A stretch of DNA of 64,000 bases from Oscillospiraceae bacterium (lineage in GTDB: Bacteria; Bacillota; Clostridia; Oscillospirales; Ruminococcaceae). Below are positions 1 through 49,529 of the stretch, piece by piece. Every line of letters starts with the position of its first letter. The first letter of the stretch is position 1. The stretch is from contig JAQXIW010000026.1 in NCBI GenBank assembly GCA_029007985.1, positions 560-64,559 on the forward strand, given 5' to 3'. A program made the position numbers and the translations under genes. The notes below the pieces were generated by a model. It did not search any database and was not told the origin of the DNA. It saw only the letters and a program-made list of their open reading frames with translations.

Positions 1-620
1 AATTAGAGTTATCTATTCTCTCTCTCCGTCTTGGATTACGCCAATACACCTCCCTCATCAGATGGAGGCCTGCGGCAATGTTTTCACTTTTGAAAGACAC
101 AAAGCCTACAAATCATTATATATACTGCTGGGACGAGACAGGGTTAATCCACTACATTGTATTGGTAAATCAGGCGAGGCTCCACTTGTCAGGGGAGCTG
201 TCGCTGAAAGCGACTGAGGGGTAGTCTAAAAATATAGCGTTACAATTATGATGTGTTTTTTCTCTCCCTCCGTCAAAAATCAGAGATTTTTGCCACCTCC
301 CTCATCAGATGGAGGCTTGCTGAAAATTCCCATATAATAAAGAATGAAGTTTGCTCTATCGGTGTTTTCTATCCCCACCGTCAAAAGTCTGCGACTTTTG
401 CCACCTCCCCTTTGTCTAAAAGGGGAGGCTTGCAGCAATGTTTTCACTTTCGAAAGACGCAAAGCCTACAAATCATTATATATACTACCGGGACGATATC
501 GGGCATAGTCCCCTACATTGTATTGGTAAATCAAGCAAGGCACCCCTTTATCTAAAAGGGGAGGCTTGCGCTAATTATTCTGCTATCAAAGAAATTACTT
601 ATACAAAATCTTCACCGAGA
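1..620. repeat. Repeat cluster A: X-type double-hairpin arms at 17-73, 259-320 and 368-433, a half module at 539-569, a Y-type arm at 173-226, and a ~110-bp internal direct repeat
   Basis: Repeated framework TCTCTCC(C)TCCGTC-[hairpin]-CCACCTC-[hairpin]-GGAGGCTTGC and its partner GCAAGGCTCC-loop-GGGGAGCTGTC-[hairpin]-GACTGAGGGGTAGTC. The same modules recur at 10.4-11.3 kb, 28.3-28.9 kb and 38.36-38.57 kb. Confidence 0.85.
173..320. repeat. Composite palindromic unit 1 (Y arm, ~33-bp AT-rich spacer, X arm)
   Basis: Starts GGCGAGGCTCC and ends GGAGGCTTGC. Y arm 173-226, X arm 259-320. Confidence 0.8.
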
Positions 621-4333: not shown

Positions 4334-6446
4334 AAAAATTAAAAAACTGCCGGGAGAAGACGGCATTGAAATTAAACATTCACAGTGCGCAATCTGTTCA
4401 CCGGGTCTGCACTGCGGTCTTTCCTGCTATGTAAAGGACGGCAAGGTTATAAAGGTCGAGGGCTGGGACGAGCACCCGTTCTCAAAAGGCGGCTTGTGTA
4501 CAAAAGGTCTGTCCAACAGAGAGTTCCTTTACAGAAAAGACAGAGTTCTCTACCCGATGAAGAGGGTGGGCGAAAGAGGCGAGGGCAAGTTTGAGAGAAT
4601 TTCCTGGGAACAGGCCTACACCGAAATCGCCGAGAAAATGAACGCCGTAAAGGATAAATACGGCGCCGACAAGGTGGCTTTCTATTCCGGATACAACAAG
4701 TGGTACCGCAATATGCTCGCCAGATTTGCCCATTCGTTCGGCTCACAGTCCTACGGCACAGAGTCGTCCTCCTGTTTTGTAGCCGGTGAAATGGCTTGGC
4801 AATGCCGGACGGGTACGGGCATGACTCAGAATTTAGAGACGGATTTGCTCATCGGCTGGGCTAACAACGGTTTCTATTCAAAATACACAATGATGGGCCC
4901 TCTGGAAAAGGCAAAGGCGAGAGGCATGAAATACATAGTAGTAGACCCGAGAGTTACACCGGGCTCTATACGCTATGCCGATTTACACCTGCGTCCGCAC
5001 CTGGGCACAGACGGCGCTTTGGCTCTGACGATAGCAAACTGCCTTATCAAAGACGACGCCGTAGACCACGACTACATCGAAAAATATGTACACGGCTATG
5101 AAGAGTACAAGGCCTATGTTTCGTATTTCACCCCCGAAAAGGGCGAAGAGCTGACGGGCGTACCGGCTCGGGATATTCTCAAAGCCGTAGAAATGATAAA
5201 AGAGGCAAAGACGATGTCCATTACCGAATGTTCGGCGCCTATTCCTCACCACAGAAACGGCTTACAGAACTACCGCGCACAGATGTCTCTGCTCGCCATC
5301 ACCGGCAACATCGATGTGCCGGGCGGTCAGAAACCGGCTCATTTCTCATTTTCGGAAAGAAACGCCGGCTTTACCACCCTGGAAGAAGAGTTTATGTATG
5401 AAACCTTCCCTCAGGACGCGGATAAATCCGTCGGCGCGGACATTCACCCGTTGTGGTACTATCTCAGACACGATATGCAGGCCAACGACTTGCCGGCAAA
5501 TGTGCTGAAGGACGATGAAAAGTCAATCAAGGCTCTCTACGCCCACGGTTTGAATTTCAGAATGTTCACCGACAACAAAAAGTGGCTTGAAGTATTCAAA
5601 AAACTGGATTTGTATGTGGATGTCGACCTGTTTATGACCGACTCTGCAAAATGGGCGGACTATGTACTGCCTTGCTGTACATCTATGGAAAGATACGAGC
5701 TCAAAGCCTATCCGGGTCAGCTGCTTTGGTATGTCAGACCGGTTGTTGAGCCGCTGGGCGAATCAAAGAGAGATGTTGACATCATTTCCGAGCTCGCCAA
5801 CTACATCGGCGTCGATGACGAGATACTATGTTCCGGCTATGAAAACGCATGTAAATATATGTTCCGCGAGACAGATGTGGATTTGGACGAGGTTATGGCG
5901 ACAGACGGCTTTGTAAAGGTCAAAGCCGAGCCGTACAAGGTCGGCACAAGACTGGAAAAAGGCTGGCCGACGCCTACCGGCAAGATTGAGCTGGTCAGCG
6001 AAGTCATCGCACAGCACCCGGAATGGGGCTTAGACGCTCTGCCGACTTATGTTGAGCCTTACACGGCGGACAGCGAAAAATATCCGTTCCGCCTCTGCGC
6101 CGGCACAAGAATACCGAACGCTATCCATTCCAGACTGCACGATTCCCCGTGGGAGAGAAGCCTGACCCCTGAACCTCAGGCAGAGATGAACCCGGCAGAC
6201 TGCGACAGACTCGGCGTCGAATTGGGCGATGATGTGCTGGTCGAGACCGAGATAGGCGGCTTCACCTATAAAGTCGTGCCTACTCTGACGGTAAAAGAGG
6301 GCGAGGTCTACATCTACCACGGTTACAGAGAAAAAGACATCAACTCGATTTTACCGTACGACAAAAACAACTGGGACCCTTATTCGGGCTACCCGGCATA
6401 CAGAAGCGCATATTGCAATGTAAAGGGGGTTAAGACAAATGGCTAA
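4326..6446 (+). CDS. Molybdopterin (Mo/W-bisPGD) oxidoreductase catalytic subunit, cytoplasmic
   Basis: N-terminal Cys cluster CAICSPGLHCGLSC...GGLCTKG. Overall length is typical of the DMSO reductase superfamily. No twin-arginine signal. Overlaps the upstream gene by 8 nt. Confidence 0.9.
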   Translation: MAEKIKKLPGEDGIEIKHSQCAICSPGLHCGLSCYVKDGKVIKVEGWDEHPFSKGGLCTKGLSNREFLYRKDRVLYPMKRVGERGEGKFERISWEQAYTEIAEKMNAVKDKYGADKVAFYSGYNKWYRNMLARFAHSFGSQSYGTESSSCFVAGEMAWQCRTGTGMTQNLETDLLIGWANNGFYSKYTMMGPLEKAKARGMKYIVVDPRVTPGSIRYADLHLRPHLGTDGALALTIANCLIKDDAVDHDYIEKYVHGYEEYKAYVSYFTPEKGEELTGVPARDILKAVEMIKEAKTMSITECSAPIPHHRNGLQNYRAQMSLLAITGNIDVPGGQKPAHFSFSERNAGFTTLEEEFMYETFPQDADKSVGADIHPLWYYLRHDMQANDLPANVLKDDEKSIKALYAHGLNFRMFTDNKKWLEVFKKLDLYVDVDLFMTDSAKWADYVLPCCTSMERYELKAYPGQLLWYVRPVVEPLGESKRDVDIISELANYIGVDDEILCSGYENACKYMFRETDVDLDEVMATDGFVKVKAEPYKVGTRLEKGWPTPTGKIELVSEVIAQHPEWGLDALPTYVEPYTADSEKYPFRLCAGTRIPNAIHSRLHDSPWERSLTPEPQAEMNPADCDRLGVELGDDVLVETEIGGFTYKVVPTLTVKEGEVYIYHGYREKDINSILPYDKNNWDPYSGYPAYRSAYCNVKGVKTNG

Positions 6447-6948
6447 AAAAATAGAGCTTGACATTTCCAGATGCTGTGCCTGCGGCGCATGTGCAATCGC
6501 CTGTATGGACCAGAACGACATCGACCTTTCCACAGGCGTGCGCCCTTTCAGAACTGTTTTCAGACAGGAGGAAAGAGCCACCGGTAAAATACAGTATTAC
6601 TCAATAGCCTGTATGCACTGCAAGGACGCCCCTTGTGTTGAGGCATGCCCGTCCGGCTGTCTGTACAAGGACGAAAAGACAGGCCTGACTCTCTATGACA
6701 ACACCTACTGCATAGGCTGTCACTCCTGCGCCATGGCATGCCCGTTCGGCGCACCGACCTTCGGCGAGGACAACAAGATGAGAAAATGCGACGGCTGTAT
6801 CGACAGACTCAACGCAGGGCTTGTGCCTGCCTGCGTAAAGGCTTGCCGCTTTGACGCCCTCAAACTTGTTGACACCGACGACAACCCGGTAGACAAAGAA
6901 AATTCTCTTATCGACATCTGCGAAGATTTGGTAAAGAGTCAGAAATAA
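6439..6948 (+). CDS. 4Fe-4S dicluster ferredoxin-type electron-transfer subunit
   Basis: Multiple CxxCxxCxxxC(P) motifs (CCACGACAIAC, CMHCKDAPCVEACP, CIGCHSCAMACP, CDGC...C). Overlaps the upstream gene by 8 nt. Confidence 0.9.
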   Translation: MAKKIELDISRCCACGACAIACMDQNDIDLSTGVRPFRTVFRQEERATGKIQYYSIACMHCKDAPCVEACPSGCLYKDEKTGLTLYDNTYCIGCHSCAMACPFGAPTFGEDNKMRKCDGCIDRLNAGLVPACVKACRFDALKLVDTDDNPVDKENSLIDICEDLVKSQK

Positions 6949-10063: not shown

Positions 10064-10384
10064 ATGAAAATAGCTTTTATTGTTTGGACGGTTGTATCTC
10101 TGATTTATGTGGGTATAGCAATATACACCGCAAAACAAAAAACTGCGGCGGGCTTTTTTTCAAATAGCCCGGCGCCGACCGATATAAAAGATGTGGCGGC
10201 TTACAATAAAGCCGTGGCAAGAATTTGGCTGTTTTTTGCCGCGGGTATGGAGATAGTAGGTTTGCCGCTTTTATTTGCAGAGCAAAATGACCCGAAAGTA
10301 TTCATATCGATAATCGGCACTATTGCGCTGATAAACGCAATAGTTGTAATGTATATGAAAACATATAAAAAATATAGGAAATGA
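10064..10384 (+). CDS. Small membrane protein, function unknown
   Basis: 106 aa, three hydrophobic segments, RBS GAAAGGGGA. Confidence 0.55.
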   Translation: MKIAFIVWTVVSLIYVGIAIYTAKQKTAAGFFSNSPAPTDIKDVAAYNKAVARIWLFFAAGMEIVGLPLLFAEQNDPKVFISIIGTIALINAIVVMYMKTYKKYRK

Positions 10385-10596
10385 AAGAGGACAGCCGACG
10401 ATAAAGAATAAAATAGACTGTCTGCGCAGCAGACCGGGGGGTTGATTAGCACCGACCGAACCGACAGGAAGTTTTAACAAATAAACGGGTTAAATTTGGC
10501 CCCTTTTGGATAAAGTGGGCTGTCACAATGGAATCGTGACTGGGGGATTGAAAAACCGAGTAAAATAACTTCATTCTTTTGTTAATAATATTATTA

Positions 10597-10746
10597 GCAA
10601 GGCTCACCTTGTGAGGGGAGCTGTCGCTGAAAGCGACTGAGGGGTAGTCTAAAAATATTGTTAGGATAACATCACTATTTTCCGTTCTCTCTCTCCGTCA
10701 CGGCGTTCGCCGTGCCACCTCTCTCGTCAGAGAGAGGCTCACTTGC
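10597..10746. repeat. Composite palindromic unit 2 (Y arm 10597-10649, X arm 10685-10746)
   Basis: GCAAGGCTCACCTTGTGAGGGGAGCTGTCGCTGAAAGCGACTGAGGGGTAGTC ... TTCTCTCTCTCCGTCACGGCGTTCGCCGTGCCACCTCTCTCGTCAGAGAGAGGCTCACTTGC. Confidence 0.8.
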
Positions 10747-10812
10747 TCATTTGTTGAAATTCAAAAATCACCGACCGAGCCGGCAGGCGACTTTAATTGA
10801 AATAATTATTTA

Positions 10813-11019
10813 GCAAGGCTCACATTGTCAGGGGGTGCGGGTGTCCGGTGGACACCTTTGCGAAGCAAAAGCACCGACCGAGCCGACAGGCGAGACCCGG
10901 CGCTGAAAGCGACTGAGGGGTAGTCATTGTAATTAAACATTGTAATTATGATGTGTTTTTCTCTCCCTCCGTCAAAAATCAGAGATTTTTGCCACCTCCC
11001 TCATCAGATGGAGGCTTGC
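10813..11019. repeat. Composite palindromic unit 3, long form (Y arm carries a 65-bp insert at 10836-10900)
   Basis: Same termini as units 1 and 2. The insert TGCGGGTGTCCGGTGGACACC...CCGACCGAGCCGACAGGCGAGACCCGG is shared with unit 5. Confidence 0.8.
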
Positions 11020-11322
11020 CAAAATTCCTATTTAATAAAGAATGAAATTTGCTCTATCGGCGTTTTTCTATCCCCACCGTCACGGCAATTTTTCCGGCAT
11101 ACAAAAGACGAAAATATACAGCTCTTTATATAAGCGGTACGATGTCGGGCCGGTCCCTACAATGATAGACATAATATTTACGAAACCAATAAATAATTAC
11201 AAATTAAATTTAGTTCTCTCTGCGTCATGGCTTCGCCGTGCCGACTTTCTTATCACAGAGAAACTTTTACAAATTTCTTATCAGCAAAACGACTCCAATT
11301 AAATATCCAAAATTACATTATC

Positions 11323-11359
11323 AAAAAAATTCCCGTAGACAGTTTCGACTGTCTCCGGG
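11323..11359 (-). terminator. Rho-independent terminator of the thiamine operon
   Basis: On the minus strand: CCCGGAGACAG-TCGAAA-CTGTCTACGGG followed by AATTTTTTT. Confidence 0.7.
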
Positions 11360-11413
11360 ATAGTATTTAATATTCTGTTAGTATGCAGCACTATCTAATT
11401 ATTCAGTATTGCA

Positions 11414-12073
11414 TTATTTCCCCATATTCCAAGCCATTTCCCAGAATTTGAGCTCGTACAGCGAGCAGGTGCGGAAAATTTTGACAAGCCTTTCAAGCTG
11501 TTCTTCGGTACATTTTTCGCCGAGCCTGTCCATCTCGTCAATCAATTCCTTGTTGTCTGCGGAATATCTGTCCGAGATGTAGCCCTTTACCCAGTCGCCG
11601 TAAAAACCGTCGTCCGCCGAGTGCGGATTGTTTTTTACCATATTTTTTGCGATAACTTCGTATGAGAGCGCACAGGACAAAATCGCAGCCATCACTTCCG
11701 CCTCACCCCATTCGTATGCTATACGCAGCATATATGAAGTGTATGAAAGATTGTCGAGAGCCGCCGGAGTGCTGTACAGCTCCTCTTTTGTCACATTGAA
11801 TTTGCCCAAGTAACCCTCGTGCACATCCATTTCGCCGTTGAGCATATTCACATACTTAGAAAAAAGAGCCGCCGTTCTCGGATTCGTCGCTTTTGCCGTA
11901 CCCACCGCAAAAGTCCTGGCGTAGTCCTGCAAGTAGATATAGTCCTGGACGATGTAAAAGCGGAATTTTTCACGGTCGAGGTCGCCGTTTTGAATACCCA
12001 GCACAAAAGGGTGGGCATTGTACATTTCCCAGATGTCCTTTGAGCCGTCAAGAAGTCTTTTTGTCGTCTTCAT
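11414..12073 (-). CDS. tenA: Thiaminase II / aminopyrimidine aminohydrolase
   Basis: TenA/PqqC-like pattern (HPFVLGIQNGDL..EKFRFYIVQDYIYL). Its start overlaps the thiD stop (TAATG). Confidence 0.85.
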   Translation of the reverse strand: MKTTKRLLDGSKDIWEMYNAHPFVLGIQNGDLDREKFRFYIVQDYIYLQDYARTFAVGTAKATNPRTAALFSKYVNMLNGEMDVHEGYLGKFNVTKEELYSTPAALDNLSYTSYMLRIAYEWGEAEVMAAILSCALSYEVIAKNMVKNNPHSADDGFYGDWVKGYISDRYSADNKELIDEMDRLGEKCTEEQLERLVKIFRTCSLYELKFWEMAWNMGK

Positions 12074-15152: not shown

Positions 15153-15167
15153 GTAAAACCGTAATGT

Positions 15168-15255
15168 AACTTCCTACGGCGGCATTATCCGCATCAGGTA
15201 AAGGGTCGAAGTTGGATTACTTCCTCTCAGCCCGCCAAAACGAGCTCCCCTGTTT
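15168..15255 (-). promoter_or_regulatory. TPP (THI-box) riboswitch
   Basis: Minus strand reads GGGGAGC...GGCTGAGAGG...ACCCTTTACCTGATGCGGATAATGCCGCCGTAGGAAG. This carries the CUGAGA and ACCUGAU..GGAUAAUGCC..CGUAGGGAA consensus blocks. Confidence 0.9.
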
Positions 15256-15300
15256 TATGTATTTAATATACACCCTAATGCGATAAAATACAAGTCGTAA

Positions 15301-22463: not shown

Positions 22464-22474
22464 CACGGTATAAA

Positions 22475-22731
22475 CCATTGAATGAGAATAGTAGCTTTAC
22501 TGCTTTGATTCAGAGAGTGCGCGGTGGGTGCGAGCGCATGAAAGGGCGTAGAGCGAATGGGCTCATGAGGGCGGCAGGAAAGCGAATGCGAGTAATGGCC
22601 GACGGGATACGCGTCCGTTATCAGAGCGTTGCGTGTATATGCACGCAAAATGAGTGGCGTTTTTACGCAAACCGGGTGGTACCGCAGAGATTTATCTTTG
22701 TCCCAGTGATTTAGTGGGGCAAAGTTTTTTT
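22475..22731 (+). promoter_or_regulatory. T-box riboswitch leader, specifier UGC (Cys), with terminator
   Basis: Stem I base CCATT/AATGG, AGTA S-turn, AGAGAG bulge, and GGTGGGTGCGA distal loop. Upper stem GCTTTACTGC/GCAGGAAAGC is followed by GAA-TGC-G (22584-22590). T-box sequence AACCGGGTGGTACCGCAG at 22669-22686. Terminator CTTTGTCCC...GGGGCAAAG plus T7 at 22696-22731. Confidence 0.85.
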
Positions 22732-22766
22732 ATTGCCCCGAAACAAAAATTTCGGAGGGTTTGAAA

Positions 22767-23933
22767 ATGATCGACTACATGAACGAAGCAAAAGCAATTT
22801 TTGAGGAAGTGAGAGAAAACAGAAGATACCTGCATCGGCACGCAGAGGGCGGTTTTGATTTGGAAAACACCGTAAAGTTTATCGATGAAAAGCTGACAGA
22901 AATGGGCATCGAGCACAGAAAATGCGGCAGAGCCGGTATCGTTGCGAAGGTCGGCAAAGGCGATAAGTGCGTTCTTTTGCGCGCGGATATGGACGCTTTG
23001 CCGATGAAAGAGGTCGCAGATGTGCCGTTTGCCTCAAATACGGGCTACACACATTCATGCGGCCACGACTGTCATGCAACCACCCTTTTGGGCGCGGCAA
23101 AAATACTCAAAGCCCACGAGAGCGAGCTTTGCGGCGTGGTTAAATTTATGTTCCAGCCGGCTGAAGAGCTGCTGCAGGGCGCGTTGGATATGGTAAATGA
23201 CGGCGTTTTGGAAAACCCAAAGGTCGACGCCGCATTCGGCACACACATTTCCGTCGGCAAACCGGGCTCAACCGTCGGCACGATGACTTATTCCGCCGGC
23301 CCGGCTCTCTATTCCGGCGATATGGTTACTTTGGAAGTCTTCGGCAAACAGTCACACGGCGCGGCTGCCTATGCCGGCGTTGACGCCATAAATATTGCGG
23401 CCCACATTGTAATCGCCTTGGAGGAAATCATCGCCAGAGAAATACCGATGGACGATAGCGCCGTTGTGCTGGTGGGTAAAATCGAGGGCGGAGATTCCTG
23501 TAACACAACTGCCGGCTATGCCAAGCTGGAGGTATCCGCCAGAGCGCAGACAGAGGAAAAGAGACAGTTTTTGCTCAAACGCATTGAGGAAATCTCAAAG
23601 GGCGTGGCCGCCACATACAGAGGCAGAGTGGAATACACCCACAACTACGGTATGTCTCCGCTGGTATGCGATGAAAAGATCGCCGCGATAGGTGCAAAAG
23701 CAGCCGAAGATTTGGGTATGAAAGTCACCTGTCTGCCGACAGCCGGCGGCACTGAGGACTTCACCGCCGTGGCAAACTTAGTGCCTGCCGTTATGCTCAA
23801 TGTGGGCGCAGGCTCTCTGGAGGAAGGTCACACCTGCGGCCATCACAATCCGGGCTTTGTGGTTGACGAGGGCGTGTTGGTCTACGAGACCGCTCTATAC
23901 TGCAAATGCGCCGTAGACTACCTGTCAAAATAA
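22767..23933 (+). CDS. M20D family amidohydrolase (N-acyl-L-amino acid amidohydrolase / aminoacylase type)
   Basis: LRADMDALPM, HSCGHDCH and FQPAEE metal-ligand blocks. Start set at the ATG 8 nt after GGAGGG. Confidence 0.9.
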   Translation: MIDYMNEAKAIFEEVRENRRYLHRHAEGGFDLENTVKFIDEKLTEMGIEHRKCGRAGIVAKVGKGDKCVLLRADMDALPMKEVADVPFASNTGYTHSCGHDCHATTLLGAAKILKAHESELCGVVKFMFQPAEELLQGALDMVNDGVLENPKVDAAFGTHISVGKPGSTVGTMTYSAGPALYSGDMVTLEVFGKQSHGAAAYAGVDAINIAAHIVIALEEIIAREIPMDDSAVVLVGKIEGGDSCNTTAGYAKLEVSARAQTEEKRQFLLKRIEEISKGVAATYRGRVEYTHNYGMSPLVCDEKIAAIGAKAAEDLGMKVTCLPTAGGTEDFTAVANLVPAVMLNVGAGSLEEGHTCGHHNPGFVVDEGVLVYETALYCKCAVDYLSK

Positions 23934-28289: not shown

Positions 28290-28940
28290 CGAATGTGCAA
28301 ATCACCGACCGAGCCGACAGGCGGTTTTGGCGTATAAGAAAGACAAACTTGGCCCCTTTTAGATAAAGGGGGCTGTCTGCGAAGCAGACTGGGGGATTGA
28401 AAACATCGACCAAATCGACTCTATTCTTTTGTTAATAATATTATTAAGCATGGCTCCACTTGTCAGGGGAGCTGTCACCGAAGGTGACTGAGGGGTAGTC
28501 TTTGTAAGTAATCATTGCAATTATGTTATGTTTTTTCTCTCCCTCCGTCAAAAATCATAGATTTTTGCCACCTCCCTCATCAGAGAGAGGCTTACTGAAA
28601 CAAATCTATATCAAAAGACGAAATTCTTTTTCTTTATCGTCTATCCCCACCGTCAAAAGTTTTCAACTTTTGCCACTGTCTCAACTGTCGGTGCTTCTGA
28701 ACATAAATGTTCGGAGGTCGCCTTCGGCGACCCACACCCCTTTGTATAAAAGGGGGAGACTTTCTTTAATAATTCTGCTTTCAAAAATACCGTAGGGGAC
28801 GATGCCCACATCGTCCCGCAAATTATTTACCGATAGAAATTATATAATAACTGTTTTGACAGCAAATTTGTTGTTATTCCGTTCTCTCTCCGTCTTGGCT
28901 TACGCAAATCCACCTCTCTCGTCAAAGAGTGGCTTGCGGC
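28290..28940. repeat. Repeat cluster C: W module, G-variant arm, composite unit 4, an X arm with an internal insertion, a Z hairpin and a solo X arm
   Basis: Modules at 28303-28323, 28349-28399, 28448-28595, 28640-28763, 28791-28820 and 28881-28937. Module order is colinear with cluster B. Confidence 0.85.
28448..28595. repeat. Composite palindromic unit 4 (Y arm 28448-28500, X arm 28535-28595)
   Basis: GCATGGCTCCACTTGTCAGGGGAGCTGTCACCGAAGGTGACTGAGGGGTAGTC ... TTCTCTCCCTCCGTCAAAAATCATAGATTTTTGCCACCTCCCTCATCAGAGAGAGGCTTAC. Confidence 0.8.
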
Positions 28941-29755: not shown

Positions 29756-30322
29756 ATGTATGAGGATATTTTCAACGAAATAAAAGAAAAATCAAAGGGC
29801 AGAGACAGATTTTTAATTTGTGTTGACGGCAAATGCGGTTCCGGCAAGACGGTGTTTTGCGAAATGCTGCAAAAAGAGTTGGATACGGATTTGGTGCACA
29901 TAGACTATTTCTATTTGCCGATAAAGGAAAGACCGGAAAATTTTGATAAAATCCCACGGGGCAATATGGATTTACGGCGATTTGAAAAGACGGTTTTACA
30001 GCCGTTCAAAGAGGGCAAGCCGGTCACCTATTACCGTTTTCAGAACATGGGTCAGTACAGGGCGGAGGACATTTCCCTGACGGGCAGGAAAATTTTAGTC
30101 ATCGACGGCTCTTATTCCATGCATCCGAATTTGGAAAACTACTATGATTTGAAAATATTTATGACCTGTTCCGACGAGAAACAGACGGAAAGGCTGAAAA
30201 AACGCGAGGGCGACAGGTACGAATTTTTCAAACAGTGGGTGGGTAAGGAAATTTTCTACCACAGGGTTTTTGACATTGAAAGCAAGGCGGACATGCTCAT
30301 CGACACCACAGAGCTTTTCTAA
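29756..30322 (+). CDS. P-loop NTPase, uridine-kinase-like
   Basis: Walker A VDGKCGSGKT, then LVIDGSY. Size and layout match uridine/cytidine-kinase-like proteins. Confidence 0.65.
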   Translation: MYEDIFNEIKEKSKGRDRFLICVDGKCGSGKTVFCEMLQKELDTDLVHIDYFYLPIKERPENFDKIPRGNMDLRRFEKTVLQPFKEGKPVTYYRFQNMGQYRAEDISLTGRKILVIDGSYSMHPNLENYYDLKIFMTCSDEKQTERLKKREGDRYEFFKQWVGKEIFYHRVFDIESKADMLIDTTELF

Positions 30323-34505: not shown

Positions 34506-34581
34506 GGGCCATTAGCTCAGCCGGGAGAGCGCCAGGTTCGCAATCTGGAGGCCAGGGGTTCGATCCCCCTATGGTCCACCA
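34506..34581 (+). tRNA. tRNA-Ala (anticodon CGC)
   Basis: Cloverleaf GGGCCAT/ATGGTCC acceptor stem with the G3:U70 alanine identity pair. Anticodon loop TTCGCAA, GGTTCGATCC T arm, and an encoded CCA. Confidence 0.95.
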
Positions 34582-35213: not shown

Positions 35214-35383
35214 TTTAGAAAAAACAAAAAGCGGCGGTTAGCCGCTTTTTAATATTGCAATGAAAAATCGTATTTGTATAAATCTATAAGTAAATTTTGT
35301 ATCGCGCGATTAAGTCCGGTCGAAAATATTTGTCAATATACCTAACTTTAAGTTGTCAAACAAAATAAAAACGCAAACAAAAA

Positions 35384-35500
35384 GTCAGCACCGTCCTATT
35401 TTCCCGGGGCGTCGCCACCCAAGTATTTTCGGCGCTGCTCAGCTTAACTTCTGTGTTCGGCATGGGAACAGGTGGATCCTGAGCGCTATCGGCACTGACC
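35384..35500 (-). rRNA. rrf: 5S ribosomal RNA, stand-alone copy
   Basis: Minus strand reads GTCAGTGCCGATAGCG...CACCTGTTCCCATGCCGAACACAGAAGTTAAGC...AGCGCCGA...GGGAAAATAGGACGGTGCTGAC. Conserved 5S loop and helix blocks are present, and the terminal helix GTCAGTGCC/GGTGCTGAC closes. Confidence 0.9.
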
Positions 35501-38358: not shown

Positions 38359-38569
38359 GCAAGGCTCCACTTGTCAGGGGGTGCGGGTGTCCGGTGGACA
38401 CCTTTGCTGCAGGCAAAAGCGCCGACCGAGCCGACAGGCGAGACCCGGCAAAACGGAGTTTTGACTGAGGGGTAGTCTTTGAATAAAGGATATTATAGAT
38501 TGCTATATTTCGTTCTCTCTCTCCGTCACGGCTCTGCCGTGCCACCTCTCTCGTCAGAGAGAGGCTTGC
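38359..38569. repeat. Repeat cluster D = composite palindromic unit 5, long form (Y arm 38359-38477 with a 67-bp insert at 38382-38448; X arm 38513-38569)
   Basis: Near-identical framework to unit 3. The terminal hairpin is replaced by CAAAAC-GGA-GTTTTG. Confidence 0.85.
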
Positions 38570-46712: not shown

Positions 46713-46748
46713 CATATTATGCTGTTTTAAGCAATTTGTAAACCCAAA

Positions 46749-47972
46749 TTACAGGATGTATTCCTTGAGTCTGCGGCACATTTCGTCGCAAGCTTCTGTA
46801 GGAATAGCCATGTTCATACGGATTGAGTTCGGAGCGTGGAACGGACGGCCGTCCTGCCAGATAACACCGTACTTAACACCCTTCTTCTGGAGCTCTTCAA
46901 TTGTCATGCCCTTTTCTTCGAGGTACTTGTCGAACTGAGCATAAATCATGAATGTGCCTTCCGGCTTAGCAACTTCAATGCCAGGAACAGATGTGAGTGT
47001 GTTGTAAACTTTTTCTGAGTTTTCTGTGATAGCTTCTTTGAATGATTTTACCCATTCATAGCCGTCTTCACCGGAGTATGCGCCGATCATAGCGTGCATC
47101 CAGAGAACGTTCATTGAGTTGTAGTGTGTCAATGAAGCTTCCTTGTTCCATCTGTCTCTCCAGTACTTGTTGTAGATGATACCGTAAGAACCTACGAAAC
47201 CTGCAAGGTTGAATGTCTTTGAAGGAGCATAGAAGGAAATTGTGTTCTGTTTTGCCCATTCGTTTGTAAGCTCAGGTGAGAGGTGTTTGTAACCAACATG
47301 GATACAGTCAGCCCAAATCTGGTCAGCGATAACTTTAACATCGTATTTCTCGAAGATAGCATAAGCTTTTTCGAGTTCTTCTTTTGTCCATACACGGCCA
47401 CATGGGTTGTGAGGAGTGCAGAATACTGTTACATGGATGTTGTTTTCAGCGATAACTTTTTCCATGTCTTCATAGTCCATTCTCCATGTACCGTTCTCGT
47501 CTTTCTTGAGCCAAGAGTGAACGATTTCGAAGCCCTGGTTCTTGAGGCAGTTTGTGAAGCCGATGTATGTCGGAGCGTGAAGAAGAACTTTGCAGCCCTT
47601 TTCACCGAAGATGTTCATAGCTGAGAGAACGCCGCCGAGGAGGCCGTTAGCGTAAACGATGTCTTCTTTCTTAACATCTGCGCCGTAGTTGTTCTTCTGC
47701 CATCTGATGATACCTTCAAAGTATTCATCTCTCGGTGCGAAGTAACCGAATGCAGGGTGATCGGCTCTCTTCTTGATAGCGTCTGTGATAGCAGGGCATG
47801 TCTTGAATGACTGGTCGGCAACCCATGTTGGGATGATGTAGTCTTTCCATTCAGGGTCTACTTCAGCGCCCGGAATCGGAATAACGTCAACAGCTCTTGC
47901 GTCCATACCGTGTCTTTCGTTGATGAAAGAAGCGTGCTGGAAAAGGTCATAATACTTGAGATTCTTGTCCAT
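46749..47972 (-). CDS. MalY/PatB family PLP-dependent C-S lyase / aminotransferase, paralog 1
   Basis: WVADQSF, HNPCGRVW and APSKTFNLAG (PLP lysine) blocks. Start set at the ATG after AAAAAGGAGAA. Confidence 0.9.
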   Translation of the reverse strand: MDKNLKYYDLFQHASFINERHGMDARAVDVIPIPGAEVDPEWKDYIIPTWVADQSFKTCPAITDAIKKRADHPAFGYFAPRDEYFEGIIRWQKNNYGADVKKEDIVYANGLLGGVLSAMNIFGEKGCKVLLHAPTYIGFTNCLKNQGFEIVHSWLKKDENGTWRMDYEDMEKVIAENNIHVTVFCTPHNPCGRVWTKEELEKAYAIFEKYDVKVIADQIWADCIHVGYKHLSPELTNEWAKQNTISFYAPSKTFNLAGFVGSYGIIYNKYWRDRWNKEASLTHYNSMNVLWMHAMIGAYSGEDGYEWVKSFKEAITENSEKVYNTLTSVPGIEVAKPEGTFMIYAQFDKYLEEKGMTIEELQKKGVKYGVIWQDGRPFHAPNSIRMNMAIPTEACDEMCRRLKEYIL

Positions 47973-48231
47973 AAAATTTCTCCTTTTTAATCGTCTGTAA
48001 TGCGATAGGACACGCATTACACATCTTTTTACAGTTTCTATTATAATATATTTTTAGCGATAAGTCTATCAAAACCATACAATTTAGACATAGAAAAACA
48101 TACAAGATTTTTAGTGATATTAACGAAAACCACAATTTAATTAGATAAAAGTATGTATAAATGATACAAAAACAAGTTGGTTTATAAATAGTTCAATAGT
48201 GTAATGTTTTGTAAAAATTTTATGTTATCGG

Positions 48232-48268: not shown

Positions 48269-48305
48269 AATGTTATTCGTCCGTGAGAATAACCAAAAAC
48301 TCAAA

Positions 48306-49529
48306 TTACAGGATGTATTCCTTGAGTCTGCGAGCCATTTCGTGGCAAGCTTCAACAGGGATAGCCATGTTCATACGGATTGAGTTCGGAGCGTGGAACG
48401 GACGGCCGTCCTGCCAGATAACACCGTACTTAACACCCTTCTTCTGGAGTTCTTCAATTGTCATGCCCTTTTCTTCGAGGTACTTGTCGAACTGAGCATA
48501 GATCATGAATGTGCCTTCAGGTTTAGAAACTTCAATGCCAGGGATAGATGTAAGAACATTGTAGATTTCTTCTGAGTTTTCTGTGATAGCTTCCTGGAAT
48601 GATTTTACCCATTCGTAGCCGTCTTCACCGGAGTATGCGCCGATCATAGCGTGCATCCAGAGAACGTTCATGTCGTTGAAGTGTGAGAGGGAAGCTTCCT
48701 TGTTCCATCTGTCTCTCCAATACTTGTTTCTGATGATACCGTAAGAACCTACGAAACCTGCAAGGTTGAATGTCTTAGAAGGAGCATAGAAGGAAATTGT
48801 GTTCTCTCTTGCCCAAGCGTTTGTGTTTTCAGGTGGGAGCTGCTTGTAGCCAACGTGGATGCAGTCAGCCCAGATCTGGTCACAAACTACCTTAACATCA
48901 TACTTTTCGAAGATAGCATAAGCCTTGTCGAGCTCTTCTTTTGTCCATACACGGCCGCATGGGTTGTGCGGAGCGCAGAATACTGTAGCATGGATGTTGT
49001 TTTCAGCGATAACTTTTTCCATGTCTTCGAAGTCCATTCTCCAAATGCCGTTTTCATCTTTCTTCAGCCAGGAGTGAACGATTTCGTAACCGTTGTTGTG
49101 GATACAGCCTGTGAAGCCGATGTATGTAGGAGCGTGGAGGAGAACCTTTGCGCCCTTTTCGCAGAATACGTTGAGAGCTGCGATAACGCCGCCGAGAAGA
49201 CCGTTAGCGTAAACGATGTCTTCCTGCTTTACATCTGAATCATACTGATTCTTCTGCCATCTGATGATGCCTTCATAGTATTCAGGTCTTGGAGCATAGT
49301 AACCGAATGCAGGGTGCTTTGCTCTGGCGATAACAGCGTCCTGAATAGCAGGGCATGTCTTAAATGACTGGTCAGCAACCCATGTAGGGATGATGTAGTC
49401 TTTCCATTCTTCGTCTACTTCTGCGTCAGGAATCGGGATTCTGTCAACAGCCATAGCGTCCATGCCGTGTCTTTCATTGATGAAAGAAGCGTGCTGGAAA
49501 AGATCATAGTACTTAAGATCCTTGTTCAT
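48306..49529 (-). CDS. MalY/PatB family PLP-dependent C-S lyase / aminotransferase, paralog 2
   Basis: Same motifs as paralog 1. The proteins are colinear and highly similar over their full length. Confidence 0.9.
   Translation of the reverse strand: MNKDLKYYDLFQHASFINERHGMDAMAVDRIPIPDAEVDEEWKDYIIPTWVADQSFKTCPAIQDAVIARAKHPAFGYYAPRPEYYEGIIRWQKNQYDSDVKQEDIVYANGLLGGVIAALNVFCEKGAKVLLHAPTYIGFTGCIHNNGYEIVHSWLKKDENGIWRMDFEDMEKVIAENNIHATVFCAPHNPCGRVWTKEELDKAYAIFEKYDVKVVCDQIWADCIHVGYKQLPPENTNAWARENTISFYAPSKTFNLAGFVGSYGIIRNKYWRDRWNKEASLSHFNDMNVLWMHAMIGAYSGEDGYEWVKSFQEAITENSEEIYNVLTSIPGIEVSKPEGTFMIYAQFDKYLEEKGMTIEELQKKGVKYGVIWQDGRPFHAPNSIRMNMAIPVEACHEMARRLKEYIL

Follow-up and report, generated by a model that had tools for sequence, protein, structure and literature searches.

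A dispersed palindromic repeat of gut Clostridia whose arms also flank genes for DUF559 nucleases

Palindromic units and a nuclease gene in the window

We describe here a family of dispersed palindromic repeats, five full copies of which lie in a 64,000-nt stretch of contig JAQXIW010000026.1 (positions 560 to 64,559 of the forward strand; GenBank assembly GCA_029007985.1) from an Oscillospiraceae bacterium. This whole stretch is referred to as the window, and its own numbering is used below. Each copy, or unit, consists of a Y arm, an AT-rich spacer and an X arm, and all five are read on the + strand. Unit 1 occupies 174-320 (Y arm 174-226, spacer 227-259, X arm 260-320) and unit 2 occupies 10597-10746 (Y arm 10597-10649, spacer 10650-10684, X arm 10685-10746). 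The same order of parts is seen in unit 3 (10813-11019; long Y arm 10813-10925, spacer, X arm 10959-11019), unit 4 (28448-28595; Y arm 28448-28500, spacer, X arm 28535-28595) and unit 5 (38359-38569; long Y arm 38359-38477, spacer, X arm 38513-38569), the last of which starts 67 nt past the stop codon of an NYN-domain gene. The extra length of units 3 and 5 is due solely to a ~60-nt insert that interrupts the first Y-arm hairpin. Five copies of the Y core GACTGAGGGGTAGTC are present in the window against 0.04 in shuffled sequence, and six of the X core TCTCTCYCTCCGTC against 0.03.

Roughly 150 nt from the first cluster of repeats lies a gene (720-1097, - strand) for a 125-residue Vsr-like PD-(D/E)xK nuclease of the DUF559 family (PF04480; Pfam E=5.5e-28). 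The protein matches PDB 3hrl with E=2e-11, its best NCBIfam match is the YcjD model, PADLOC returns a weak 'homing endonuclease' match, and the conserved residues D51, E62, D64 and H68 are intact. An initial annotation of the window had reported the repeats with no mobility gene nearby and thus missed this gene. Its description of the units themselves is borne out, including their positions and common strand, the termini GCAAGGCTCC and GGAGGCTTGC with variants, a double hairpin in every arm, an AT-rich spacer separating the arms (33-35 nt in the window) with a TACAATTATGATGTG-like motif in three of the five, and the lack of a visible target-site duplication at the unit ends. Its copy list is correct for full units, but overlooked solo arms, a Y'/X' subfamily, inserts and a solo hairpin in the same four intergenic regions. 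We also agree with its view of the repeat as a dispersed, modular, palindromic intergenic element of the general kind represented by repetitive extragenic palindromes (REP), bacterial interspersed mosaic elements (BIME) and BOX, without a match to any named family. A gathering-threshold Rfam scan of the whole window returned only a T-box, a thiamine pyrophosphate (TPP) riboswitch, 5S rRNA and tRNA, a permissive scan of 10380-11420 gave chance-level matches only, and no matching family appeared in the searchable literature.

The anatomy of a unit can be described as four hairpins and two cores around the spacer. The Y arm begins with the terminal hairpin H1 (GGCTCCCC-TTGTCA-GGGGAGC), followed by a variable hairpin, H2, enclosed by TGTC...GAC, and by the Y core TGAGGGGTAGTC; beyond the spacer, the X core TCTCTCCCTCCGTC leads into a second variable hairpin, H3, and the terminal hairpin H4 (GCCACCTCCCTC-GTCAGA-GGGAGGC). 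Over ~55 nt the Y arm is similar to the reverse-complemented X arm, such that the unit has terminal inverted repeats. Each arm (55-115 nt) thus joins a C-rich/G-rich terminal hairpin that is conserved to a second hairpin that varies freely and to a core, which is G-rich in what we call the 5' arm and C-rich in the 3' arm, and the units measure ~120-210 bp. Across the family the spacer is 20-50 nt long (up to 105 nt), with 28% GC. A palindromic nature of the spacer is not supported, its best internal stem being 5.04 bp against 4.80 in shuffles.

Folding predictions for RNA or DNA, made for units 1 and 4 among others, give H1, H2, a core-to-core stem around the spacer, H3 and H4, at z -1.8 to -3.8 relative to shuffles. 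In 42 distinct short units set against a five-helix model and 500 shuffles, 95.6% of cells are paired compared with 87.4% in shuffles (0/500), double-change cells number 108 against 32, and the covariation score is 0.193 against 0.049, with slid controls at or below 0.044. This compensation is confined to H2 and H3, for which 14 and 21 distinct perfect stems are found. H1, H4 and the cores are invariant, the cores having been fixed by the search pattern and H1 and H4 not. Many of the variable hairpins end in C-GNA-G triloops (GAA in 30, GTA in 9 and GCA in 5 of 61), which form very stable DNA mini-hairpins. The tetranucleotide GTAG is part of the Y core (GGGGTAGTC) but is found neither in the X arm nor in arm types A, B and C, described below. 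A hammerhead-like CUGAUGA in a loop was also considered, and was dropped because the Rfam scans gave nothing on the units.

Spread of the family and its pairing with DUF559 genes

Scanning for the Y-core/X-core pattern, with one genome per species, reveals a widespread family: more than 107 unit loci, nearly all in gut metagenome-assembled genomes (MAGs) of Acutalibacteraceae, Ca. Fimenecus and Oscillospiraceae. Orientation and context were tabulated for 113 units from 107 loci and the window. All but one are intergenic, and the exception may reflect a spurious open reading frame (ORF). Of the gene pairs around the units, 24 are convergent, 31 co-directional and 16 divergent, and the sign of the GC skew divides 59 to 54. 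The shared orientation of the five window units, which the initial annotation had noted and which suggested a coupling to transcription or replication, is therefore a local feature and not a family rule, as the family has no bias relative to either genes or GC skew. Many units are located at contig ends, and exact-protein look-ups for the loci of the window itself returned only short contigs ending in repeats. Recurrent neighbours include genes for an ABC ATPase, YchF, MFS, GH2, ThiF and aspartyl-tRNA synthetase, among others. The window holds no transposase, as had been stated, and clustering of ORFs across the 107 loci in search of a linked one gave only housekeeping families. The unit pattern also has no match in IMG/VR viral contigs, which indicates that the element is not phage-borne. 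In addition, one unit (L008; CAVELL010000041.1, labelled Eggerthellaceae) falls in an Actinomycetota-assigned bin while all other matches are Clostridia, and represents either bin contamination or horizontal transfer.

Individual copies can be both long-lived and variable. One unit has been kept at the same divergent intergenic site between ThiF and YchF genes in six congeneric species (L042, L047, L048, L092, L102 and L106); two of them have a short Y arm there, and in the remaining four the arm carries the ~60-nt insert in two distinct versions. The unit begins ~20 nt away from the left-hand gene's start codon, and this gene must therefore be transcribed through or from the unit. Contigs of the same species differ by whole units, whose gain or loss has its breakpoints in the terminal hairpins. 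Where L109 has a unit of 164 bp, L112 and L118 show just one hybrid hairpin; the L109/L112 junction is ambiguous over the 11-bp repeat ACGCCTCCCTT and shows no target-site duplication, just the hairpin itself. Between L155 and L153 the difference is 101 bp inserted in a hairpin loop, and in L126 and L128 two abutting hairpins have collapsed into one. L140 has an extra 987 bp relative to L142, downstream of a DUF559 gene, that includes five near-identical tandem gene-less units in the order 5' arm, short spacer, 3' arm, linker. Units are thus able to form tandem arrays like those of BIMEs.

Within the 107 unit loci, which span 787 kb and contain one DUF559 gene to 113 units, the sole homologue of the window's DUF559 gene is this one, in L053, at 60% identity. 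Directly upstream of its ATG stands the reverse complement of an X arm, whose core GACGGAGGGAGAGAAAA-ATG supplies the ribosome-binding site. The gene closes with the codons for K K S L P Q S, AAAAAATCTCTCCCTCAGTC, which form an X-type core with a hairpin and a long terminal hairpin behind it. As the arms flank the gene, the gene takes the place that the spacer has in a unit, on the strand opposite to the Y-to-X direction. The layout of the window, with units on the + strand and the gene on the - strand, fits this strand relation, which is also that of the full cassettes described next. L053 further encodes, at 5869-6861 (-), a XerC/D-like tyrosine recombinase (Phage_integrase family), 40 nt from a unit that abuts the arm-flanked gene; it is probably a housekeeping enzyme.

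The pairing recurs in an independent sample, for which metagenome contigs were chosen by DUF559 protein similarity alone (277 relatives, 80 loci kept, 46 genes after dereplication). An arm-type C-rich/G-rich hairpin lies within ~160 nt of every one of the 46 genes, and on both sides of 32; for the remaining gene ends of these loci the figure is 14 of 107. By eye, ~28 of the 46 have the canonical order of 5' arm, gene and 3' arm, which reads ...GGGAGG-TGGC-hairpin-GACGGAGGGAGAGAA-ATG...gene...AAATCTCTCCCTCAGTC-hairpin-GACAGCTCCCTC-GTCAGA-GGGAGCC; one (L178) has an insert-bearing long arm. In these canonical cassettes the core of the 5' arm supplies the ribosome-binding site and that of the 3' arm overlaps the last codons, and the C-terminal tails of the proteins are read-through into the arm. 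In ~40 of 66 testable loci, the upstream flank can be aligned to the reverse-complemented downstream flank at z>=6. The repeat is consequently not the orphan, gene-less element it was initially taken for: the same arms bracket DUF559 genes in these 80 independently retrieved loci. A description of this pairing of a repeat with a dedicated enzyme was not found in the searchable literature.

The arms and the nucleases also vary together. Both arms of a cassette always belong to the same one of several arm families, among them A (GGAGGGAGAG / CTCTCCCTC, loop GTCAGA), B (GGGGGAT / ATCCCCC, loop TTGCCTAAA), C (GAGGGAT / ATCCCTC, loop TTGTGTAAA) and D (GAGGGGT / ACCCCTC). All 13 clade-1 proteins have A-type arms, and cassettes with B-type arms form blocks of their own in the protein clustering. 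Residues D51, E62, D64, G65, H68, D77, R80, R93 and N96 are invariant in 48 DUF559 sequences, including YcjD of E. coli. Ahead of the 5' arm, clade-1 cassettes share a conserved promoter-like sequence, TTGAAA-N17-TATATT. L167 and L185 cease to be similar directly past the 3' arm. L180 and L181, also considered as a guide to the cassette ends, are uninformative because they differ ~40 nt beyond that arm. In the window, the X arms are A-type, the Y arms a D-like variant and the Y'/X' arms B-type. The DUF559 protein of the window clusters with C-type cassettes, and the arms of its gene are decayed, its C-terminus ...KESLRQS being homologous to the arm-encoded KKSLPQS of L053.

Proteins of this DUF559 subfamily return at least 7998 matches, mostly on contigs shorter than 2 kb, and contigs with the window's own DUF559 gene mostly stop ~315 nt downstream, within repeats. 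Short contigs and stops inside repeats are typical of multicopy flanks. Cassettes and arms systematically break short-read assemblies, a practical consequence for MAGs of Acutalibacteraceae.

Other repeat modules and features of the window

The full units of the window are embedded in related modules, all on the + strand unless stated otherwise. In the first region, a solo A-type X arm (16-73) consists of the core TCTCTCTCTCCGTC, a variable hairpin and the terminal hairpin CCTCCCTC-ATCAGAT-GGAGG. It is followed by a linker block (74-172) that lies after an X-type arm and before a Y-type start and has its counterpart at 434-534, with 89% identity between 64-143 and 424-503 (repeat D9). Between unit 1 and this second copy are a linker read from the sequence (321-366, repeat D20), which is partly complementary to the linker before units 2 and 4 (D17: AACTTCATTCTTT versus AAAGAATGAAGTT), and a B-type X' arm (367-433) made up of the core CTATCCCCACCGTC, a hairpin and GCCACCTCCCC-TTTGTCTAAA-AGGGGAGGCTTGC. 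Next comes a solo hybrid terminal hairpin at 535-569 (GCAAGGCACCCC-TTTATCTAAA-AGGGGAGGCTTGC; no strand assigned), of the same kind as the single hairpin left in the unit-less contig L112 relative to L109.

In the second region, a partial Y-type arm (10420-10444; hairpin GTCTGC-GCA-GCAGAC and core CGGGGGGTTG) precedes a stand-alone fragment of the long-arm insert, the Z module CACCGACCGAGCCGACAGGCG (10450-10470). Further copies of this module occur alone at 10769-10789 and 28303-28323 and within the long Y arms at 10872 and 38420. Units 2 and 3 are flanked on the outside by a B-type Y' arm (10498-10550; GGCCCC-TTTTGGATAAAG-TGGGC, hairpin, core GACTGGGGGATTG) and, on the far side, by a truncated X' arm (11066-11097), with a degenerate X arm further on (11214-11265). 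Unit 4 likewise has a B-type Y' arm on its left (28351-28399) and, on its right, a long X' arm (28639-28760) with a mirror-image insert in its terminal hairpin, and a solo A-type X arm lies at 28882-28937. The second and third regions are thus nested mosaics, as their Y-X units sit between Y' and X' arms. A small hairpin module, GGGGACGATGCCCACATCGTCCC, at 28797-28819 recurs beside Y arms in several species (also in the flanks of units in L013 and L094).

Elsewhere in the window, a 5S rRNA gene (35383-35499, -; Rfam 97 bits) appears to be an orphan, with no 16S or 23S rRNA in the 64 kb, and a tRNA-Ala(CGC) gene lies at 34506-34581 (+). A T-box leader (22469-22708, +) precedes the ORF at 22761-23933, and a TPP riboswitch (15154-15261, -) precedes a thiamine-related operon that ends with TenA (11414-12073); both are ordinary in Firmicutes. 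Two tandem paralogues of ~400 aa (46749-48017 and 48306-49529, both -), considered as linked transposases, turned out to be class I/II aminotransferases, with the last 300 nt including the downstream flank 91% identical (D1, 46740-47039 versus 48297-48596).

Interpretation and comparison with known systems

We consider it likely that the units represent non-autonomous copies, without the gene, of a small selfish cassette built around a DUF559 nuclease, and there is a substantial chance that the pair represents a new class of element. The full cassette comprises the 5' arm, a gene for a DUF559 endonuclease of ~120 aa and the 3' arm, the two arms being inverted copies of each other, and in a unit an AT-rich spacer of 20-50 nt stands where the gene would be. 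The X arm corresponds to the 5' arm, and the Y arm to the 3' arm, each in reverse complement. As to how the units spread, we infer that the nuclease may recognize its cognate arms, probably as a dimer that engages either the two-fold symmetric element or hairpins in extruded or single-stranded form, and may cut in or near the terminal hairpins. Copies would subsequently be gained, lost and homogenized through break-induced recombination between arms, in a manner resembling homing or gene conversion rather than cut-and-paste transposition. We prefer such a route because there is no target-site duplication, because PD-(D/E)xK enzymes are without known strand transfer, and because a homing endonuclease belongs to the same fold group. 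In the cassette mRNA, the 5' core would act as the ribosome-binding site and could be masked when it pairs with the 3' core or with the C-rich strand of the terminal hairpin in its own arm, an effect that would keep nuclease expression low. The promoter-like sequence upstream of the 5' arm is consistent with such a role at the RNA level.

Several observations weigh against this interpretation. Binding or cutting of the arms by the nuclease is itself a step that we infer from sequence, and we know of no PD-(D/E)xK nuclease that mobilizes DNA on its own. The DUF559 gene of the window is a relative, not the demonstrated cognate of the window's A-type arms, because its protein belongs to a different clade and its own arms are decayed; the cognate gene, if present in this genome, would lie outside the window. 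Among the 46 dereplicated genes, 18 have non-canonical arms, such as a gene between two units or one with a 3' arm only, and the conserved segment is not strictly bounded by the arms, given that clade-1 cassettes share the promoter-like sequence outside them. The unit spacers contain no recognizable remnant of a DUF559 gene. An ATG is retained in 28 of 83 spacers, where a fraction of 0.29 is expected, and is thus not enriched; tblastn finds no DUF559 fragment in the linkers of the window, a weak match at 29927-30202 being a P-loop kinase. The indels between same-species contigs can also be explained by ordinary recombination between direct repeats of 8-11 bp in the terminal hairpins, and do not separate this process from site-specific cutting. 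Finally, gene-containing and gene-less alleles of one locus were not found among the fetched loci, in which no directed search for them was made.

Alternatively, DUF559 could be a homing endonuclease gene that stands on its own and occupies the middle of a palindrome already in place, with the gene-less units as the targets that it cuts, the arms as the homology for copying, and the units having arisen and spread by other means. In its position exactly between the two cores, the gene would split a two-fold symmetric recognition site; gene-less units far outnumber genes, target-site duplications are not seen, and PADLOC gives its weak match to a homing endonuclease. The Vsr/DUF559/DUF2726 fold group moreover includes a characterized homing endonuclease, I-Bth0305I (PDB 3r3p; PMC3424549). 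However, the lack of paired alleles among the fetched loci counts here too, and spacers that vary in sequence and in length (up to 105 nt) are a poor fit to a fixed cleavage site. The use of an arm core as ribosome-binding site and the read-through into the other arm point to long co-evolution, and the spread of units to new sites is left unexplained. We regard this explanation as unlikely. A somewhat smaller chance is given to a structured RNA or DNA element that is selected by the host, for instance as an mRNA stabilizer or processing site, a translational operator or a protein-binding site, and that is not currently mobile. The strong conservation of H1, H4 and the cores across species, the covarying hairpins, the folds more stable than shuffles, the unit maintained at the ThiF-YchF site in six species with transcription of the left-hand gene through or from it, and the position of the 5' arm in the 5' untranslated region of the cassette, downstream of the promoter-like sequence, would all suit such a function. 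Less easily reconciled with it are the random orientation and the occurrence alike in convergent, divergent and co-directional gaps, the lack of an Rfam match, the presence/absence differences, tandem arrays and nesting of units, and the breaking of assemblies by units as by multicopy repeats. A host function is nevertheless compatible with a selfish nuclease cassette, since single copies may have been co-opted.

Two further explanations invoke a transposase. The units could be elements of the REP/REPIN type, moved by a REP-associated tyrosine transposase (RAYT) or an IS200/IS605-type Y1 (HUH) transposase encoded elsewhere, with DUF559 a mere neighbour or passenger. The occurrence of arms as singlets and inverted doublets of a hairpin module, the mosaic clusters with linkers, the missing target-site duplication, the many C-GNA-G triloops in the variable hairpins and the GTAG of the Y core all recall that type. 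Yet the arm-flanked gene is DUF559 and not a Y1 transposase in 46 of 46 dereplicated cases, no transposase-like neighbour recurs in the 107 unit loci, and GTAG is missing from the X arm and the other arm families. In addition, single-strand transposition is expected to give a replication-strand bias, whereas the GC skew divides 59 to 54, and we judge this explanation improbable. More improbable still is a classical miniature inverted-repeat transposable element (MITE), in which the units would be internal-deletion derivatives of an insertion sequence (IS) with a DDE transposase, moving by cut-and-paste. Terminal inverted repeats, a size of ~120-210 bp and multiple intergenic copies are what such an element would have, but neither the units nor the L109/L112 junction show a target-site duplication, the inverted 'termini' are structured arms of 55-115 nt, the window and the recurrent neighbours provide no transposase, and IMG/VR viral contigs provide no match.

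Through independent sampling, a repeat that is abundant in uncultured gut Clostridia is here tied to a nuclease family, DUF559, without an assigned function. If the link is functional, it would also account for the short metagenomic contigs and for an earlier result, given without further comment, that 'DUF559 domain-containing protein' is 14-fold enriched among predicted targets of programmed inversion, which are flanked by inverted repeats (PMC9881135). None of the 25 papers in the searchable literature that mention DUF559 links it to repeats, and searches for DUF559, ycjD, Vsr with MITE, and Box C gave no description of an association between the nuclease and a repeat.

A parallel to this arrangement may exist in E. 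coli. In strain MG1655 (NC_000913 1351030-1351830; ycjD at L189 3908-4261, -), ycjD ends (...SPSP*) inside a C-rich/G-rich palindromic block, whose inverted partner lies 154 nt downstream with a duplicated fragment of the ycjD 3' end between the two blocks; the repeat is on the downstream side only, and the start region of the gene lies within a perfect 17-bp hairpin. The downstream block belongs to a dispersed repeat found in 5426 of 5426 complete E. coli genomes, at a median of 16 places per genome, which is probably the repeat first described near envM/fabI as 'Box C'. ycjD itself is present in ~3340 of the 5426 genomes, and in ycjD-negative strains the locus holds the eef efflux operon and not an empty unit (PMC12817139). 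The 11-mer GACCGAGCCGA of the Z module also occurs just past the stop codon of E. coli ycjD, and a hidden Markov model of the long arm matches the locus weakly (nhmmer, E=0.018), a value that does not establish DNA homology. The likeness to the window arms is thus a suggestive parallel in architecture only. More generally, small DUF559 proteins (YcjD-like, with the Vsr fold) would be an unrecognized class of repeat-associated nucleases that form, with their cognate hairpin arms, a new kind of selfish element, one that spreads by nuclease-triggered recombination and not by a transposase. The system would reach across phyla, with E. coli YcjD and the GC-rich palindromes beside it as its enterobacterial form, an idea that we hold as possible but rather doubtful. 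If true, it would provide a function for a decades-old orphan gene family and an unexplained repeat family, and the E. coli ycjD locus is a genetically tractable place in which to test it.

Each of the known systems closest to the element shares part of its logic. As in pairs of MITEs and IS elements (Correia/NEMIS, RUP with IS630-Spn1, Nezha), abundant gene-less elements share inverted ends with a rarer gene-carrying form, but here target-site duplications, a DDE transposase and a gene remnant in the spacer are lacking, indel junctions lie within terminal hairpins, and the partner DUF559 is not a known transposase family. With free-standing or intron-borne homing endonuclease genes, in particular that of the Vsr-like I-Bth0305I, the cassette shares a small nuclease from one fold group, a gene placed centrally in a symmetric sequence and a spread that would depend on recombination with flanking homology; in our case, the putative 'site' is not one conserved gene but a repeat dispersed in many copies, and the paired alleles discussed above are lacking among the fetched loci. 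The BOX, RUP and SPRITE elements of Streptococcus pneumoniae are also modular, hairpin-forming intergenic repeats of Firmicutes with separable boxes and variable internal modules, but have no sequence similarity to the units and follow another module logic, and BOX and SPRITE are without a known associated gene.

Closest in logic are the REP/REPIN-RAYT system and the BIME mosaics of E. coli. These, too, are intergenic hairpin modules found as singlets and as inverted doublets with a short spacer, and as mosaics with conserved linkers; one or few dedicated enzyme genes are flanked by repeats in inverted orientation, target-site duplications are absent, and copies are long kept at orthologous sites. 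The present repeat differs in having no sequence similarity to REP and no replication-strand bias, in its longer arms of 55-115 nt with two hairpins and a core each, and in an arm core that doubles as ribosome-binding site and overlaps the last codons. The flanked gene also differs, being a DUF559 Vsr-like PD-(D/E)xK nuclease where RAYT is a Y1 HUH transposase. To our knowledge, REP/REPIN are the only dispersed palindromes with a known dedicated enzyme, RAYT, none being known for BOX, SPRITE, ERIC, Box C and many others. If its link to DUF559 is functional, the repeat described here would be part of a second kind of repeat-plus-enzyme system, based on a nuclease with the restriction-endonuclease fold.

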